A stretch of DNA of 64,000 nt from an uncultured Salinisphaerales bacterium (lineage in GTDB: Bacteria; Pseudomonadota; Gammaproteobacteria; Nevskiales; CAJXLF01). Location: contig CAJXLF010000001.1 in assembly GCA_913055805.1 (NCBI GenBank), positions 146,761 to 210,760 on the forward strand, in the 5' to 3' direction. The notes below the pieces were generated by a model. That model saw only the letters and a list, made by a program, of their open reading frames with translations, was not told the DNA's origin and ran no database searches. Positions 5,113 through 17,399 of the stretch are shown piece after piece (positions within the stretch are counted from its first letter, which is position 1; the number at the start of each line of letters is the position of its first letter). Position numbers and translations under genes: made by a program.

Positions 5113-5988
5113 ATGTCACAGAACAGTACTGCGGACACCTATTACGTACCGGCGGGGAGCAGCTGGCCATTCCTGATGACGATCGCGCTGGTGATCTTCG
5201 TCTCCGGGTTCGGTCACATGCTCAACGAAGATATGAGCTTTGGCCGTATCGCCTTCTTCACGGGCCTCGGCTTTATCATCGTCATGACCTTTGTATGGTT
5301 GCGTGGCGTGATTCACGAAAGCGAATCCGGCAAGTACAACATGCAGGTGGACCGCACTTACCGCTGGAGCATGGGCTGGTTCATCTTCTCCGAGGTGATG
5401 TTCTTCGGCGCCTTTTTCGGCGCACTGTTCTATGCCCGCATCCTGTCGGTGCCATGGGTAGCGGGCGCCGGTCCCGAACTCATGACCAACGAAGTGCTGT
5501 GGAAGGGTTTCGAGGCCGTGTGGCCCACCAACGGTCCGGCCGATATGGGCGGTGAGTTCAGCACCATTCCCGCCTGGGGCGTTCCGTTCCTCAACACCCT
5601 GATCCTGCTGACCTCCGGCGTGACCTGTACCTTCGCCCATCATGGCCTGAAGGAAGGCAATCATCGCAAGGCCACGATCTGGCTGGCGGCGACTGTGGCG
5701 CTGGGCTGCGGTTTCCTGTTCTTCCAGGCTGAAGAATATATCGAGGCCTACAGCCATCTGAACCTGACTCTGGAGTCAGGCATCTATGGTTCTACATTCT
5801 TCATGCTGACCGGTTTCCACGGCATGCATGTGACGCTGGGCACCATCATGCTCATCATCATCATGTTCCGTTGCGCCAAGGGGCATTTCACCGAAGACCG
5901 TCATTTCGGCTTCGAAGGTGTGGCCTGGTACTGGCACTTTGTGGACGTAGTCTGGATTGGCCTGTTTATCTTCGTATACGTCGTATAA
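5113..5988 (+). CDS. coxC: cytochrome c oxidase subunit III
   Basis: Subunit III signature regions (FFMLTGFHGMHVTLG, AWYWHFVDVVW), 291 aa. Confidence 0.93.
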   Translation: MSQNSTADTYYVPAGSSWPFLMTIALVIFVSGFGHMLNEDMSFGRIAFFTGLGFIIVMTFVWLRGVIHESESGKYNMQVDRTYRWSMGWFIFSEVMFFGAFFGALFYARILSVPWVAGAGPELMTNEVLWKGFEAVWPTNGPADMGGEFSTIPAWGVPFLNTLILLTSGVTCTFAHHGLKEGNHRKATIWLAATVALGCGFLFFQAEEYIEAYSHLNLTLESGIYGSTFFMLTGFHGMHVTLGTIMLIIIMFRCAKGHFTEDRHFGFEGVAWYWHFVDVVWIGLFIFVYVV

Positions 5989-12073: not shown

Positions 12074-13504
12074 ATGAGGCGGGAATACTTTCTGAAGTTC
12101 GGCTTGTCGGCCGTTTTGCTGGCGCTGGCAGGTTGTGCGTCCGTGCCGGGTACGCCGCCGCCGACGGTGGTATCGGCCTGCCTGCAGCAATTTCAGAATC
12201 TTGATGCTCGGTTGAGCAGAGCCGGCCTGCATGATGCAGGCGCTTATCGGATTCCCGGATTTCCCTTTTTGCGCAGCACACGCTTTACCGCTTCCTTTGC
12301 ACATGAACTGCAGGGCAGGGCGCAGTGGCATGAGTGGCTGAGTGCTTTGCGCGACGAGGATCAACAGGCGCGTGAGCATGAGCTGCGTAATCTGGGTCTG
12401 CCCGATTCCGCCCGGCAGGCCCAGGTACTGGCCCAGTGTGGCGAGCAATTGATTGGCAAGCTGCTGGACGACGACAAGCGTCTCATGCAACTGGCCGCAA
12501 GGGCGGAAGTGCCGGATGACTATTCGACCCTGGCGCGTATTCTGGGCGCCTATCCTCTGGCTGTGCCGTTTCTGCGTCAGGGTGTGGCGGGTTACCAGGA
12601 TGAAGTACGCCAGAATTTCTCAAGGCCATTGCGCGGCGATGCCATTGCTTATGTGCCGGACGCGCCGTCGGTCGATGCCAAACGCTTGAGTCGGTCGTTG
12701 GCGCGTGCGCCACGCGACACCCTTGGCCGTCCTGTGCTGACATCTGACATGAAGGCGCAACTGCTGCGCGTGCATGCGCCAGTCTGGTCGGTAGAGGTAG
12801 AGGGCAATGCCGACAGTCCCGGCCGTCTTGTTTCAAATCAGGAGCGGGTCATGGTCGTCACGGATGAGGCTGTGCTGTACACCCGAATCGGCCATACCCG
12901 TTTTGCTGACCAGGTATTCCTGCAACTGATCTATACCCTCTGGTTTCCCGCTCGGCCACATGAGGGTCCGGTGGACCCCTATGCCGGCGATTTTGATGCG
13001 GTCGTCTGGCGTGTCACGCTCGGCAATGACGGTGAGCCCGTAGCCTATGACAGTATTCACGCCTGCGGTTGTTACCATTATTTCTTCCCGGCCAGGGACT
13101 GGCCCCGGCGGCCGCAGGATGACTGGTGGCAGGAGCCGGTTATCCATCCACAGGACAACCTGCCGTCGCCACCACTGGCCCTGCGTATCCAGGCCGGCAC
13201 ACATTATCTGATTCGAGTGTTGCCGCGCTCGGCGGTGCGGGATGTAGACACGCGCAGGTATCGGCTGCAGCCCTATGCAACGCTGCGCAGCCTTGAGGAT
13301 GCGGGGGGCGGACATCAAAGCCTGTTCGGCGCTGATGGTCTGGTAGCCGACAGCGAACGCCTGGAACGCTTCTGGTTATGGCCAACCGGCGTCGTCAGCC
13401 CTGGCGCCATGCGGCAATGGGGGCGGCATGCCACTGCTTTTGTCGGACGGCGTCATTTTGATGATGCACGTCTGCTCGAGAGTTTTCTTTCTGAGCCCCG
13501 CTGA
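12074..13504 (+). CDS. hypothetical lipoprotein (476 aa)
   Basis: Signal peptide with lipobox LALAGC. Coding-like composition, no family recognised. Confidence 0.55.
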   Translation: MRREYFLKFGLSAVLLALAGCASVPGTPPPTVVSACLQQFQNLDARLSRAGLHDAGAYRIPGFPFLRSTRFTASFAHELQGRAQWHEWLSALRDEDQQAREHELRNLGLPDSARQAQVLAQCGEQLIGKLLDDDKRLMQLAARAEVPDDYSTLARILGAYPLAVPFLRQGVAGYQDEVRQNFSRPLRGDAIAYVPDAPSVDAKRLSRSLARAPRDTLGRPVLTSDMKAQLLRVHAPVWSVEVEGNADSPGRLVSNQERVMVVTDEAVLYTRIGHTRFADQVFLQLIYTLWFPARPHEGPVDPYAGDFDAVVWRVTLGNDGEPVAYDSIHACGCYHYFFPARDWPRRPQDDWWQEPVIHPQDNLPSPPLALRIQAGTHYLIRVLPRSAVRDVDTRRYRLQPYATLRSLEDAGGGHQSLFGADGLVADSERLERFWLWPTGVVSPGAMRQWGRHATAFVGRRHFDDARLLESFLSEPR

Positions 13505-13623
13505 TCAAAGATATTTCTGTCGTGTTTTTGCAGAAAAATGACCTTGGCGTCATAATTTGCCCATGCTGGCGCCCCGTAAGGGAAGAGACGGGCGCCTTGA
13601 CCTACCTTCAGGCATAGATAGTC

Positions 13624-14265
13624 ATGAATGAGCTAGCGATTCAGGAATTCGAGCCGCAGGACGCAGAGGCGGTCGGCAAACGCGAGCGTAACAAGCTGCG
13701 CAATCGGCAATTGATCATGGAAGCGGCACGGCGTTGTTTTATCGAGAATGGCTACGATGCCGTGACGGTGCGCGACATTATTGGTGAAACCGATCTGGCC
13801 TCTGGAACTTACTACAATTATTTTCCGGACAAGGCGGCCGTGTTCAAGGCGCTGGTGGAAGACAGCATGGTCGCCATGAACCAGCGTCTGCATGAGGTAC
13901 GCAGCAGCGCGCGGTCGATGGAGGAATTTCTCTACGGGGCTTATCTGACTGCGTTCCAGACCGTGGCGGATGATCCCCTGTTCTTTGCCTTTATTCTGCG
14001 TAATGAACCCGTGGTGCGGGACTTCTACGAAGATACCGTGTTCGGGATATCCATCAATACCCTGAAAAAGGACATCAAGGATGCTGTGGTCCGCGGTCTG
14101 TTGCCCATGACCGATATCGAGTTCCTGGCTGCCGCTTTTTATGGTGTGGGTTACGAAATGTCACGTAGCCTGGCTGCACGTGAGATCAAGGATCCGGAAA
14201 GGGCGGCGCGCATGGCTACGGATCTGCTTATGCGTGGCGTGCAATCCGTGGGGCAGCGAGCCTGA
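13624..14265 (+). CDS. TetR family transcriptional regulator
   Basis: N-terminal TetR HTH (RNRQLIMEAARRCFIENGYDAVTVRDIIGETDLASGTYYNYFPDK). Confidence 0.85.
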   Translation: MNELAIQEFEPQDAEAVGKRERNKLRNRQLIMEAARRCFIENGYDAVTVRDIIGETDLASGTYYNYFPDKAAVFKALVEDSMVAMNQRLHEVRSSARSMEEFLYGAYLTAFQTVADDPLFFAFILRNEPVVRDFYEDTVFGISINTLKKDIKDAVVRGLLPMTDIEFLAAAFYGVGYEMSRSLAAREIKDPERAARMATDLLMRGVQSVGQRA

Positions 14266-14282
14266 TCAGGCAATAGCAGGCA

Positions 14283-14290
14283 ATAAAAAA
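14283..14290. repeat. left copy of 8-bp target site duplication ATAAAAAA
   Basis: Identical octamer at 16455-16462, immediately outside the two terminal inverted repeats. Confidence 0.8.
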
Positions 14291-14316
14291 GGGTCTTATA
14301 TACATAACAAACCCAC
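14291..14316. repeat. IS terminal inverted repeat (left)
   Basis: See mobile element; 24/26 match to the reverse complement of 16429-16454. Confidence 0.85.
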
Positions 14317-14369
14317 TATTAATGGGCTATGCTCGGACTCCCGCTAATAACTAACTGGGAGACTGGCTT

Positions 14370-14558
14370 ATGGCCGAATATGATTTGGATGCCGAAATCG
14401 GTGCTTTGCAGTTTTTAGTTCTGACCCTAATCGCTTCTCATCCTGATGCTGAGAAGCTGCTTCACGAGTTTGATTACAGGATGAAGGGGACAAGGATGAG
14501 TCAGAACATGTTGGAAACGTTGACCCGTTATCGTCGCCATGTTGAATCTGCGATCTAA
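14370..14558 (+). CDS. hypothetical small protein (62 aa), IS passenger
   Basis: ATG preceded by GGGAGA. Followed by the hairpin terminator at 14605-14636. No family recognised. Confidence 0.4.
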   Translation: MAEYDLDAEIGALQFLVLTLIASHPDAEKLLHEFDYRMKGTRMSQNMLETLTRYRRHVESAI

Positions 14559-14604
14559 GCGGTTCCGGCAAATCATACAAATACATTTTTGACTCCATAA
14601 CGAC

Positions 14605-14636
14605 GAAGCCCGCTATTCAGCGGGCTTCTTCTTTTC
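14605..14636. terminator. rho-independent terminator inside the IS
   Basis: GAAGCCCGC-TATTCA-GCGGGCTTC, a perfect 9-bp stem followed by TTCTTTTCC. Lies between the convergent passenger genes. Confidence 0.6.
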
Positions 14637-14729
14637 CGGTTTCTGTTTGGGTTTGGGCGGCGTGTTTAGCATTCGCCGGAGTATTTCATCCATTCTCCGC
14701 TTGGTTTCTCTATCTTCGTTTTGGCTCAT
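14613..14729 (-). CDS. possible 38-aa basic/Pro-rich peptide
   Basis: Hand-read: MSQNEDRETKRRMDEILRRMLNTPPKPKQKPEKKKPAE. Its ATG overlaps the stop of the 108-aa ORF (ATGA). Its stop lies in the terminator loop. Very short, so weak. Confidence 0.25.
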   Translation of the reverse strand: MSQNEDRETKRRMDEILRRMLNTPPKPKQKPEKKKPAE

Positions 14730-15052
14730 TTCTTCAGTACCTTTGCTGCGCCAAGCGCCTTATCTACCGCCTGCTCAACAATGCTGATATCAAAGCGTTC
14801 GGCGAGAACCAACAACAGCAAAACTTCGAGGGCGAGTATCGAAACCGGCCCGGCCCAGCTCTGCATGGAGGAAAAAACATGTATATCTAGAACAATGGTA
14901 CCAACCAGAATGAATAGAAAAACATCTACTTTTCTGGCTTTTTGCTCTGCCGCCAAGTCTTCTTGCAGTTCGTTTATTTGGCGGTCTTTCGGAGTTTCTT
15001 GGGCTTCTTTTCCAAGCGAATCAAACTCTGTTCCGGATTCCTTATTTGCCAT
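14726..15052 (-). CDS. small 2-TM membrane protein (108 aa), candidate toxin partner of the Panacea-domain protein
   Basis: Charged N-terminal segment, then two hydrophobic helices (VDVFLFILVGTIVLDIHVFSSM and VSILALEVLLLLVLA). Overlaps the upstream gene by 11 nt. The toxin role is inference. Confidence 0.55.
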   Translation of the reverse strand: MANKESGTEFDSLGKEAQETPKDRQINELQEDLAAEQKARKVDVFLFILVGTIVLDIHVFSSMQSWAGPVSILALEVLLLLVLAERFDISIVEQAVDKALGAAKVLKK

Positions 15053-15494
15053 CGAATCTCATCCTATATTCGGCGAGGATGTCTTCGTTTGGAATAATCG
15101 CGCCGTGCCCAGGAAAATAATTCTTCGCCCAAGCACCCTTTTCGTCATGCGTGATAGCCACTAGCCTGCTTGGCGCAAGCTTGGACAAACTGTCTACGGC
15201 ACCCTCCAAAAAATCAGACAAGTCCTGATCTGCAATATCTGGAACAGAATGAAATACATTCTTTACAGGCTTTTTCCCGAAAGCCTTTACCTGATGATAA
15301 ACAGGCGGATTCACGGGGCCGTAGTCCCATGCCTCAAAATTGCCGTCAATCAGCGGATCGCCGTCTTGCTGGCCCATGTAAACCATGTGTGCCAGATAAA
15401 GGATTTTCTGCAATTGGAGATTGGAAATTCCCCAGTCGGATAATCTGCAAATTTCCTTGGCTACTGATAATGATGAAATCGCCATTTTTAACAC
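15042..15494 (-). CDS. Panacea (DUF4065, SocA/GepA-like) domain protein, putative antitoxin
   Basis: NLQLQKILYLAHMVYMGQQDGDPLIDGNFEAWDYGPVNPPVYHQVK matches the hallmark LQKLLY...PL..FEAW.YGPV.P.VY pattern of DUF4065. Overlaps the transposase stop by 7 nt. Confidence 0.75.
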   Translation of the reverse strand: MLKMAISSLSVAKEICRLSDWGISNLQLQKILYLAHMVYMGQQDGDPLIDGNFEAWDYGPVNPPVYHQVKAFGKKPVKNVFHSVPDIADQDLSDFLEGAVDSLSKLAPSRLVAITHDEKGAWAKNYFPGHGAIIPNEDILAEYRMRFDGK

Positions 15495-16387
15495 TCCTTG
15501 TACAGGAGCCTCTTCCCCGATATTCCCATCATAACAACATGGGCGCGTTCCATGTCACTTATATGGCGATGGTTATATCGAAAATCAAACTCGCCGACAT
15601 ACCGCTTCAAATGCTGTTCGCCTACGTGGTGATAAGTACCCACAAGGCCGCGCTTCAGAATGCTGAAGTAGCTTTCAATCGTGTTCGTGTGGACGTCGCC
15701 ACGCACATACTCACCGATGCCATGCGACACCACGCCATGATCGGCAAACTCGCGGCCAACCTTCGTGTAAACGCTGGCTTCGTCGGTCATGATCTTGGCT
15801 TCAGCGGCTACCTGTTCCTTGATGATTGGCTTCAGGGTGTCGCCGTTCACGCGGGGAACGTGGAAACTGCGAGCCTTGCCGCCGCGTTCAACCAGCGTGA
15901 AGATTTTCATCTTGTGGTCATAGCCGCGAGCAGTCTTGCCTTTCTTCTTGCTGGTGCCCCAGTAGGTTTCATCAATCTCAACCGTACCGCCGCCAGCACC
16001 GAAGATACCGCCATCTTCCTTCATGGCCTCACGGATACGGTGAGTCATGAACCACGCAGATTTGTACGTGATTCCTAGCATGCGATGAAGTTGGTGGCTG
16101 CTAATGCCTTTCTTGCTGGCACTCATCAGATAGACCGCCATCAGCCACTTGTTCAGCGGAATCTTGCTGCGCTCAAACACAGTGCCCACAGTTACAGAGA
16201 ATTGCTTACGGCATTTGTACTCGCCGCACTTGTACAGACCGGGGCGGGCGCTCTTGCCAGTAATGGCATACGCCTTATCCTCAACTCCGCAATGAGGGCA
16301 AACCGGGCCATTGGGCCAACGGATTTCCTCAAGGTATTCGCGGGCTTTATCGGCGTCTTGGAACTGTGGGGCGGTTAAGTTGCACAT
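15488..16387 (-). CDS. IS1595 family transposase (ISXO2-like DDE domain with N-terminal zinc ribbon)
   Basis: N-terminal CPHCG...YKCGEYKCRKQFSVTVGTVFERSKIPLNKWLMAVYLM, KGISSHQLHRMLGITYKSAWFMTHRIREAM and VEIDETYWG are characteristic of IS1595-family transposases. Confidence 0.9.
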   Translation of the reverse strand: MCNLTAPQFQDADKAREYLEEIRWPNGPVCPHCGVEDKAYAITGKSARPGLYKCGEYKCRKQFSVTVGTVFERSKIPLNKWLMAVYLMSASKKGISSHQLHRMLGITYKSAWFMTHRIREAMKEDGGIFGAGGGTVEIDETYWGTSKKKGKTARGYDHKMKIFTLVERGGKARSFHVPRVNGDTLKPIIKEQVAAEAKIMTDEASVYTKVGREFADHGVVSHGIGEYVRGDVHTNTIESYFSILKRGLVGTYHHVGEQHLKRYVGEFDFRYNHRHISDMERAHVVMMGISGKRLLYKEC

Positions 16388-16428
16388 GGCTTTGTCTCCA
16401 AACTACAACTTAACTGTAATCCTTTACT

Positions 16429-16454
16429 GTGGGTTTGTCAAGTATATAAGACCC
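16429..16454. repeat. IS terminal inverted repeat (right)
   Basis: Reverse complement matches 14291-14316 at 24/26 positions. Confidence 0.85.
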
Positions 16455-16462
16455 ATAAAAAA
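16455..16462. repeat. right copy of 8-bp target site duplication ATAAAAAA
   Basis: Identical to 14283-14290. Confidence 0.8.
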
Positions 16463-16487
16463 ACCCGGCCATGGCCGGGTTTTTTTA
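16456..16487. terminator. bidirectional rho-independent terminator (rpoH side intact, tetR side displaced by the IS)
   Basis: AAAAAAA-CCCGGCCATGGCCGGG-TTTTTTT, 19 nt downstream of the rpoH stop. The A-tract is the IS target site. Confidence 0.65.
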
Positions 16488-16505
16488 TGCGGAAGCGGGA
16501 GTACC

Positions 16506-17399
<894 letters not shown>

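Follow-up and report, generated by a model that had tools for sequence, protein, structure and literature searches.

What occupies the space between a TetR-family regulator gene and the heat-shock sigma factor gene rpoH in the genome of an uncultured Salinisphaerales bacterium, and what has it done to the terminator that these two genes appear to share? We examined this question in a window of 64,000 nucleotides (the whole stretch of DNA that was analysed; contig CAJXLF010000001.1 of assembly GCA_913055805.1, positions 146,761 to 210,760), and all coordinates below are positions within it. We consider it likely that the segment at 14291–16454 (2,164 bp, with the transposase on the minus strand) is an intact transporter insertion sequence (tIS) of the IS1595 family, that it carries a toxin–antitoxin pair of the PanAT type in a putative operon with its transposase, and that it landed in the terminator between the two host genes.

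The boundaries of the element can be read directly from the DNA, as it is bounded by inverted repeats and a duplication. A repeat search found terminal inverted repeats of 26 nt, complementary at 24 of 26 positions (92%), one distal to the transposase at 14291–14316 (GGGTCTTATATACATAACAAACCCAC) and one proximal to it at 16429–16454 (reverse complement GGGTCTTATATACTTGACAAACCCAC). When up to three mismatches are allowed, this repeat has exactly two matches in the 64-kb window and none in 100 shuffles. Immediately outside both arms stands a perfect 8-bp direct repeat, ATAAAAAA, with identical copies at 14283–14290 and 16455–16462, which we read as the target-site duplication. The interior is also distinct in base composition: guanine plus cytosine (GC) content is 0.491 in the element, against 0.586 in the window and about 0.595 in the 5-kb flanks, and the lowest-GC segment of the element's size starts at 14301, almost exactly at the element, about 4 standard deviations below the window mean (standard deviation 0.022).

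Inside the repeats lies a cargo region of 1.1 kb. It holds panA, which encodes a 147-amino-acid (aa) protein with a Panacea/DUF4065 domain (15042–15485, minus strand), a gene for a 108-aa protein (14726–15052, minus strand), a 38-aa micro open reading frame (ORF) (14613–14729, minus strand) and a 62-aa ORF convergent with the others (14370–14558, plus strand). Passenger genes between the inverted repeats of an IS-like element are what distinguishes a tIS, and this arrangement is present here. A sequence-only reading of the segment had already described 26-bp inverted repeats that agree in 24 of 26 positions, a perfect flanking octamer, an AT-richer interior, membership of the IS1595 family and a length beyond that of a minimal IS, and each of these descriptions stands. 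Its count of four possible passenger ORFs stands in part: passengers are present, and one of the four, the 38-aa ORF, appears instead to be a gene conserved across this group of IS.

The family assignment rests on the transposase (15488–16387, minus strand, 299 aa), which is intact, consisting of one ORF without frameshift whose residues 1–297 align to relatives. The protein combines an N-terminal zinc ribbon (PF12760, E = 1.7e-15, residues 13–62) with a C-terminal catalytic domain (PF12762, DDE_Tnp_IS1595, E = 3.3e-37, 128 bits where the cutoff is 27), and it scores 207.7 bits with the NCBIfam model NF033547, 'IS1595 family transposase', whose cutoff is 75. Motifs starting at residues 139 (DET), 201 (TDE) and 236 (TIES), with a lysine seven residues past the glutamate, would hold the candidate catalytic residues. 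In the IS1595 family, 8 bp is the usual length of the target duplication, and an N-terminal zinc ribbon is present in all groups except IS1016 (PMC8101967). Every feature of the family given in that source is found in the element, namely the zinc ribbon, the DDE domain, the single ORF, the terminal repeats and the 8-bp duplication.

According to the authors of TnCentral, the tIS category is confined to the IS1595 and IS66 families. The element described here is a further example of the IS1595 tIS, a kind already known, and it shares with the others one DDE transposase that bears a zinc ribbon at its N-terminus, terminal repeats, 8-bp duplications and internal passenger genes; it differs in that the nearest transposase to its own is only 71% identical. 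Its subgroup in ISfinder is presumably 'ISNwi1+', which we take to comprise elements of 1.75–4.75 kb with ends of the form ggnnatTAT and 8-bp duplications, an assignment that is provisional and that draws on the ends, the duplication length, the size range and the E...K(+7) motif of the transposase. Our search of the literature found no description, for the IS1595 family, of a cargo of PanA and the 108-aa protein, of a conserved micro-ORF or of a tendency to insert at hairpins. What we add to the known kind is the identification of the cargo as a PanA–partner pair, the conserved micro-ORF and a recurrent association with hairpins, all of which we offer as leads rather than as established novelties.

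The site of insertion is recorded by the duplication. On the left flank is the TetR-family regulator gene (13624–14265, plus strand, 213 aa; PF00440 TetR_N, E = 1e-13), and on the right flank is rpoH, which encodes sigma-32 (16506–17399, minus strand; TIGR02392 rpoH_proteo, 404 bits against a cutoff of 323). Palindrome search, terminator scan and folding together delineate a predicted bidirectional intrinsic terminator between these convergent genes, at 16457–16486, composed of an A7 tract, the CCCGGCCATGGCCGGG stem-loop and a T7 tract (A7-CCCGGCC ATGG... GGCCGGG-T7). Positions 16454–16489 form a perfect palindrome of 18+18 nt, and on the rpoH strand the structure has a folding energy of −26.7 kcal/mol (z = −4.4), with U7 after it. 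When the element and one copy of the octamer are removed, the sequence ...GCAATAAAAAAACCCGGCCATGGCCGGGTTTTTTTATGC... is obtained, which folds at −29.6 kcal/mol (z = −4.1), and the uninterrupted junction between tetR and rpoH would read GCAATAAAAAAACCCGGCCATGGCCGGGTTTTTTT. The duplicated ATAAAAAA places the insertion in the A-tract of the predicted terminator common to the tetR-family gene and rpoH.

The consequences for the two host genes differ by strand. On the rpoH strand, the hairpin still precedes UUUUUUUAU, because the duplication re-creates this tract in its right copy, and rpoH retains its predicted hairpin and U7 tract after the insertion. On the tetR strand, folding detected no significant structure ahead of the element (z = 0.04), and a transcript leaving tetR now meets its first terminator-like site in a hairpin within the element itself. 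This internal hairpin, GAAGCCCGCT/AGCGGGCTTC with a TTCTTTTCC tail (14605–14638), was found by terminator scan and folding and is terminator-like on the plus strand; the folding energy of its stem-loop (14605–14628) is −22.0 kcal/mol for the plus strand (z = −3.9) and −24.5 kcal/mol for the minus strand (z = −4.2), where the U-tract is poor. With no significant structure before the element and the internal hairpin as the first terminator-like site, tetR transcripts should therefore lengthen. They would gain about 340–370 nt of element, crossing the 62-aa ORF before they reach the internal hairpin. Thus, the element appears to leave rpoH termination intact while probably lengthening the tetR transcript.

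These results agree with four further proposals of the sequence-only reading: that excision restores a bidirectional terminator, that the duplicated octamer keeps the U-tract of rpoH, that tetR is now cut off from its hairpin by 2.2 kb and that the element contains a terminator of its own. A search of Rfam gave only sub-threshold matches to a generic terminator hairpin. Separately, the tetR region itself (13400–14290) is lower in GC (about 0.53–0.55) than its surroundings (0.58–0.62).

Relatives of the element allow a comparison. A metagenome scan yielded 80 loci, referred to below by their L numbers where needed, with transposases 52–71% identical to that of the element. Paired terminal repeats with the core gGcnATTATATACTTGACAaAcCc were found in 39 of the 80, delimiting elements of 1.8–4.7 kb that carry about 0.9–3.8 kb downstream of the transposase, and 30 of these 39 have perfect 8-bp duplications. 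Since paired relatives of this size each carry extra downstream DNA, we regard them as a clade of tIS, with the end consensus GGCGATTAT where the element in the window has GGGTCTTAT. Pfam matches among 84 cargo ORFs of the relatives include PIN (4), DUF3800 (3), DUF1828 (2), HNH, GmrSD_N, an EcoRI-type methylase, ClpP and one further Panacea domain. Neither PanA nor the 108-aa protein of our element has a tblastn match in any of these 80 closest transposase relatives. One relative (L025, 67% transposase identity) shows the same order, with its transposase followed by a Panacea protein of 177 aa that is divergent, then by a 99-aa ORF and a micro-ORF, and in another (L030) a weak Panacea match directly follows the transposase.

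The same comparison bears on how the genes of the element may be expressed. The best site in a promoter scan (10/12) was TTGACA-17 nt-TACAGT at 16413–16441 on the minus strand, a candidate promoter for the transposase, panA, the 108-aa gene and the 38-aa ORF, and its −35 hexamer falls inside the proximal inverted repeat. Both mismatches between the two inverted repeats fall in this TTGACA hexamer (16436–16441); the corresponding positions of the distal repeat (14304–14309) read ATAACA, facing inward. Across the clade, TTGAC is retained in 26 of 31 proximal repeats versus 15 of 31 distal ones (Fisher p = 0.0066), and its retention mainly at the proximal end fits a role as the −35 hexamer of the transposase. 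A promoter placed in this way would drive one tightly packed operon of transposase, panA, 108-aa gene and 38-aa micro-ORF.

Does the location in a terminator reflect a choice by the transposase, or only where insertions are tolerated? Target-site tests were carried out on the reconstructed empty sites of 31 elements, including the one in the window. A perfect stem of at least 8 bp is overlapped or abutted by 10 of the 31 insertion sites, compared with 3.1% of random positions in the same contigs (p = 2e-8) and 4.8% of AT-rich random positions (p = 1e-6), in a test that was designed after the sites had been seen and whose controls were drawn from whole contigs, coding sequence included. The duplication lies in the loop of a GC-rich hairpin in L046, L048, L075 and L076 (CCCCC...GGGGG) and in L069 (CCTTCCC...GGGAAGG), and on the T-tract just past a terminator stem in L026, L028, L040 and the window, with the hairpin upstream of the transposase end in all four. 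A further locus, L038, is also among the hairpin-associated sites.

An alternative at this point is that the terminator location reflects neutral survival only, with insertions into intergenic terminators being tolerated and neither hairpins nor T-tracts preferred by the transposase, a reading that we take seriously and yet judge to be somewhat improbable. It gains from a minimum-free-energy test on 40-nt windows at the 31 insertion sites, which was not significant (p = 0.22), and from the post hoc nature of the stem test and the coding sequence among its control positions. It does not readily account for the excess of sites at perfect stems over both random and AT-rich controls, nor for the exact placement of the duplication in a hairpin loop or on a terminator T-tract at several sites. 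Survival of harmless insertions could contribute to the association.

We next consider what the element carries. PanA matches PF13274 (SocA_Panacea) with E = 1e-14 and 55.8 bits against a cutoff of 25.7, over profile positions 1–112 of 113, and it matches phrog_1281 with E = 8e-31. Its score of 95.9 bits (E = 2e-27) against the SocA equivalog model NF047745 falls below the cutoff of 190, and we rejected its classification as a SocA equivalog on this basis. There are 393 homologues of PanA, the nearest non-identical one at 61% identity, and the PDB holds no sequence relative. The gene begins 2 nt past the transposase stop, with an AAGGAG motif within the last transposase codons, and is itself overlapped by 11 nt by the gene for the 108-aa protein.

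The 108-aa protein, a putative PanT-type membrane toxin by its hydropathy, predicted structure and context, has a charged N-terminal helix and two transmembrane helices. Hydropathy windows exceed 1.6 at about residues 39–60 and 72–92, and AlphaFold2 predicts helices at 21–62, 67–86 and 90–107 with a mean predicted local distance difference test score (pLDDT) of 86.6. Its family, with 249 cluster representatives at E ≤ 1e-3, shows a conserved W-G-G-P turn between the hydrophobic helices and a C-terminal amphipathic helix. In the PDB, Foldseek turned up no match other than those with E > 4, and there was no plasmid tblastn match.

An indication of what this protein may do comes from its company. 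Members of the family lie directly downstream of, and overlap, the PanA subfamily in 8 of 8 independent contexts (family hidden Markov model E = 1e-30 to 5e-38): the window, Salinisphaera, Arhodomonas, Tokpelaia, a Roseobacter prophage, a Bordetella phage, a phage-like contig and an IS1595 element in a Rhodobiaceae metagenome-assembled genome (MAG). This side-by-side occurrence is the reason why we regard PanA and the 108-aa protein as probably a PanAT-type toxin–antitoxin pair. The passengers that the sequence-only reading had noted without identifying can now be described as a Panacea antitoxin and a conserved membrane partner.

Two of these contexts deserve a closer description. In the Bordetella avium phage vB_BaM-IFTN6 (OM293955.1; L105, 1501–2321), a 'SocA family protein' is 50% identical to PanA, and it is followed by a gene with a hypothetical annotation whose product belongs to the 108-aa family (30% identity, E = 2e-15). 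In the Rhodobiaceae MAG (JACKJO010000006.1; L019, 3115–5880), an IS1595 element carries a PanA (57% identity) and a 113-aa partner, convergent with the transposase. The right end of this element has two repeat-like sequences head to head with a 4-nt spacer (5801–5838 and 5843–5880), which could represent a neighbouring copy or a junction-like structure.

PanAT systems pair a Panacea/DUF4065 antitoxin with a membrane-depolarising PanT toxin, and the validated membrane-depolarising PanTs have a charged N-terminus followed by C-terminal transmembrane helices (Kurata et al. 2022, PMC8832971). The pair in our element resembles them in its PanA without an extra N-terminal domain, in the overlapping small gene that follows, in the order of antitoxin before toxin and in the architecture of the 108-aa partner. 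It differs in that the partner has no detectable similarity to the validated T12 or T3 toxins, and in that the pair stands behind a transposase in one putative operon instead of having its own promoter region.

SocAB of Caulobacter, a type VI toxin–antitoxin system whose SocA is the founding Panacea protein, offers a second comparison. PanA resembles SocA to the extent of its partial match to the equivalog model, but the score lies far under the cutoff, and the partner is a membrane protein rather than a SocB-like replication inhibitor. We also set aside membership of the partner in toxin cluster T10, which contains SocB: the partner matches no NCBIfam model, and T10 holds Caulobacter SocB and about 40 mostly alphaproteobacterial loci (PMC8832971 Dataset S1). 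Tn3-family transposons with type II toxin–antitoxin passengers are similar in carrying the pair inside the ends of the element, where it is presumed to stabilise the element or its replicon. They use another transposase family and mechanism, however, are much larger and carry a resolvase, and Panacea is not among the toxin–antitoxin types listed for them (ParE, PIN, Gp49, HigB, zeta and others; TnCentral use case).

If the pair acts as its architecture suggests, the membrane protein with its two helices would, when not neutralised by PanA, damage the membrane or depolarise it, and the pair would penalise loss of the element (addiction) or serve as an abortive-infection defence that pays for its upkeep. 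Many PanATs are found near transposase genes, and transposons have been speculated to aid their partner swapping and spread (Kurata et al., PMC8832971). An IS-sized element able to carry a Panacea toxin–antitoxin pair in an operon with its transposase would be a concrete vehicle for both processes.

A different reading of the cargo accepts the tIS but denies that PanA and its 108-aa partner form a pair of the addiction type, and sees in them either an anti-phage abortive-infection module or a membrane protein that is not toxic, accompanied by an adaptor or chaperone resembling PanA, the latter modelled on SocA as a ClpXP adaptor. In its favour, the same pair occurs in three prophage or phage settings (L018, L105, L112), defence-type genes abound among the cargo of sister elements (GmrSD_N, HNH, a restriction-modification-type methylase, PIN), PanA gives a sub-threshold match to the SocA equivalog (E = 2e-27) and the partner has no homology to any validated PanT. 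Nevertheless, PADLOC models give no real match, the partner has no NCBIfam match and so is not demonstrably SocB-like, and the tight gene overlap with strict co-occurrence is the classic signature of a toxin–antitoxin system, for which defence and addiction are in any case not mutually exclusive. On balance we find this reading unlikely and prefer that of a PanAT-type pair.

Several observations weigh against our reading of the locus as a whole. The 108-aa partner has no Pfam, NCBIfam or PHROG match and no real PADLOC match, and comparison with validated T12 and T3 toxins (represented by D11S_2262 of Aggregatibacter phage S1249 and by an annotated Escherichia coli PanT, of phage PhiR47_1, that was taken as T3) gave BLASTP E > 1 and an hhalign probability of 0.1%. 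A PanAT-type pair is thus a well-supported interpretation rather than a demonstrated one, with putative toxicity and neutralisation. The 62-aa ORF has no homologue other than itself and no match in Pfam, NCBIfam or PHROG. The proposed promoter, the operon structure and read-through from tetR are predictions from consensus scans and spacing. Searches for exact copies of the transposase, TetR and RpoH proteins led only to contigs that are 100% identical to the window, so that no empty site was found, and the exact element is represented by one copy at one insertion site, all from a single clone; the mobility of this copy is therefore deduced from its relatives.

The perfect duplication, the intact ORFs and repeats and a GC deficit of 9.5 points are consistent with a recent insertion. 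The sequence-only reading had suggested looking for the empty site in related genomes, and this search was unsuccessful, yielding no empty site, second insertion site or close relative: a genome-contig scan with TetR found only a Nevskiales MAG with 75% identity in which rpoH is not adjacent. The element had no megablast match among plasmids, and its exact repeat was absent from viral contigs. A contig break in SRR6201700 at 16460/16483 (the end of L016 and the start of L003) was considered as a polymorphism or empty-site allele and rejected, as it is symmetric on the 36-nt palindrome and the two contigs overlap by 24 nt; it is most likely a de Bruijn assembly artefact. That the insertion is instead old, fixed and immobile, possibly domesticated, with its perfect duplication kept as part of the rpoH U-tract, is decidedly unlikely in our view: all public contigs with these genes agree with the window at 100% identity and have the element at the same site, there is no second copy in the window and the right copy of the duplication is indeed constrained as the U-tract, but identical contigs from one clone are uninformative on age, the left copy is just as perfect without obvious constraint, all ORFs and both ends are intact and the GC content, 9.5 points under that of the host, shows no sign of amelioration.

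Beyond the putative toxin–antitoxin pair, the element contains the 38-aa micro-ORF (MSQNEDRETKRRMDEILRRMLNTPPKPKQKPEKKKPAE). The start codon of this ORF and the stop codon of the 108-aa gene share the bases of an ATGA; the ORF is called as a gene on some public contigs and its product contains …ILRRMLNTPPKP followed by a Lys-rich tail. The family motif is DEILRRMLNTPPKP, that is, ...D[DE][VI]LRRMLxTPPxP[KH] with a Lys-rich tail. By tblastn it is present in about 55 of the 80 relatives and additionally in the Rhodobiaceae element; a strict regular expression recovers it at 47 of 80 loci, whereas 20 shuffles gave 0–3 of 80. Among 30 complete elements, 21 have the motif within the IS, a number that rises to at least 25 once tblastn matches are counted as well, and the motif was absent from the three PanAT loci without an IS that we checked (L017, L018, L105). 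Entropy at codon positions 1, 2 and 3 is 0.87, 0.65 and 1.68 across 45 distinct DNA copies, with the same pattern in flanking codons outside the search pattern, which indicates that a protein is encoded and is under purifying selection. It matches no family in Pfam or NCBIfam. The micro-ORF occurs on either strand relative to the transposase and is present in most relatives whatever their cargo; it is apparently a core accessory gene of this clade rather than cargo, and its product is possibly a DNA-binding cofactor or regulator. The 62-aa ORF on the opposite strand is a putative coding sequence taken from the ORF list; a GGAG motif precedes its ATG by 8 nt, and the internal terminator-like hairpin comes after it.

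These observations invite a broader proposal, which we put forward tentatively and hold to be rather doubtful as a whole: that the element represents a distinct and widespread clade of IS1595 tIS marked by the micro-ORF, by an exchangeable slot for toxin–antitoxin or defence cargo and by a preference for hairpins and T-tracts. The micro-ORF would encode a near-universal protein of 40–55 aa with the motif D-[DE]-[VI]-L-R-R-M-L-x-T-P-P-x-P and a poly-Lys tail, perhaps acting as a cofactor or regulator of transposition. The cargo slot would be freely exchangeable, holding mostly PanA pairs, PIN, GmrSD, HNH and methylases. Targeting would favour a hairpin loop or the adjacent T-tract, making intrinsic terminators safe havens for insertion. 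If the conservation of the micro-ORF and the tendency towards hairpins hold, both would be leads on how this IS1595 clade controls its transposition and finds low-cost landing sites.

Two relatives provide additional observations. On the Roseomonas marmotae plasmid p1318-1 (NZ_CP061092.1; L103, 3492–5971), an annotated element with 55% transposase identity has co-directional genes for a transposase, a 266-aa hypothetical protein, a PIN-domain protein and a 61-aa ORF with a Pro/Lys-rich tail, which is the same operon logic with a different cargo, probably also of toxin–antitoxin type. At another locus (L051, about 2518–2560), a further repeat-like sequence (CGGAGTTATATACTTGACAAACGC) directly follows the duplication of the relative, an arrangement that suggests tandem or nested insertions of these elements.

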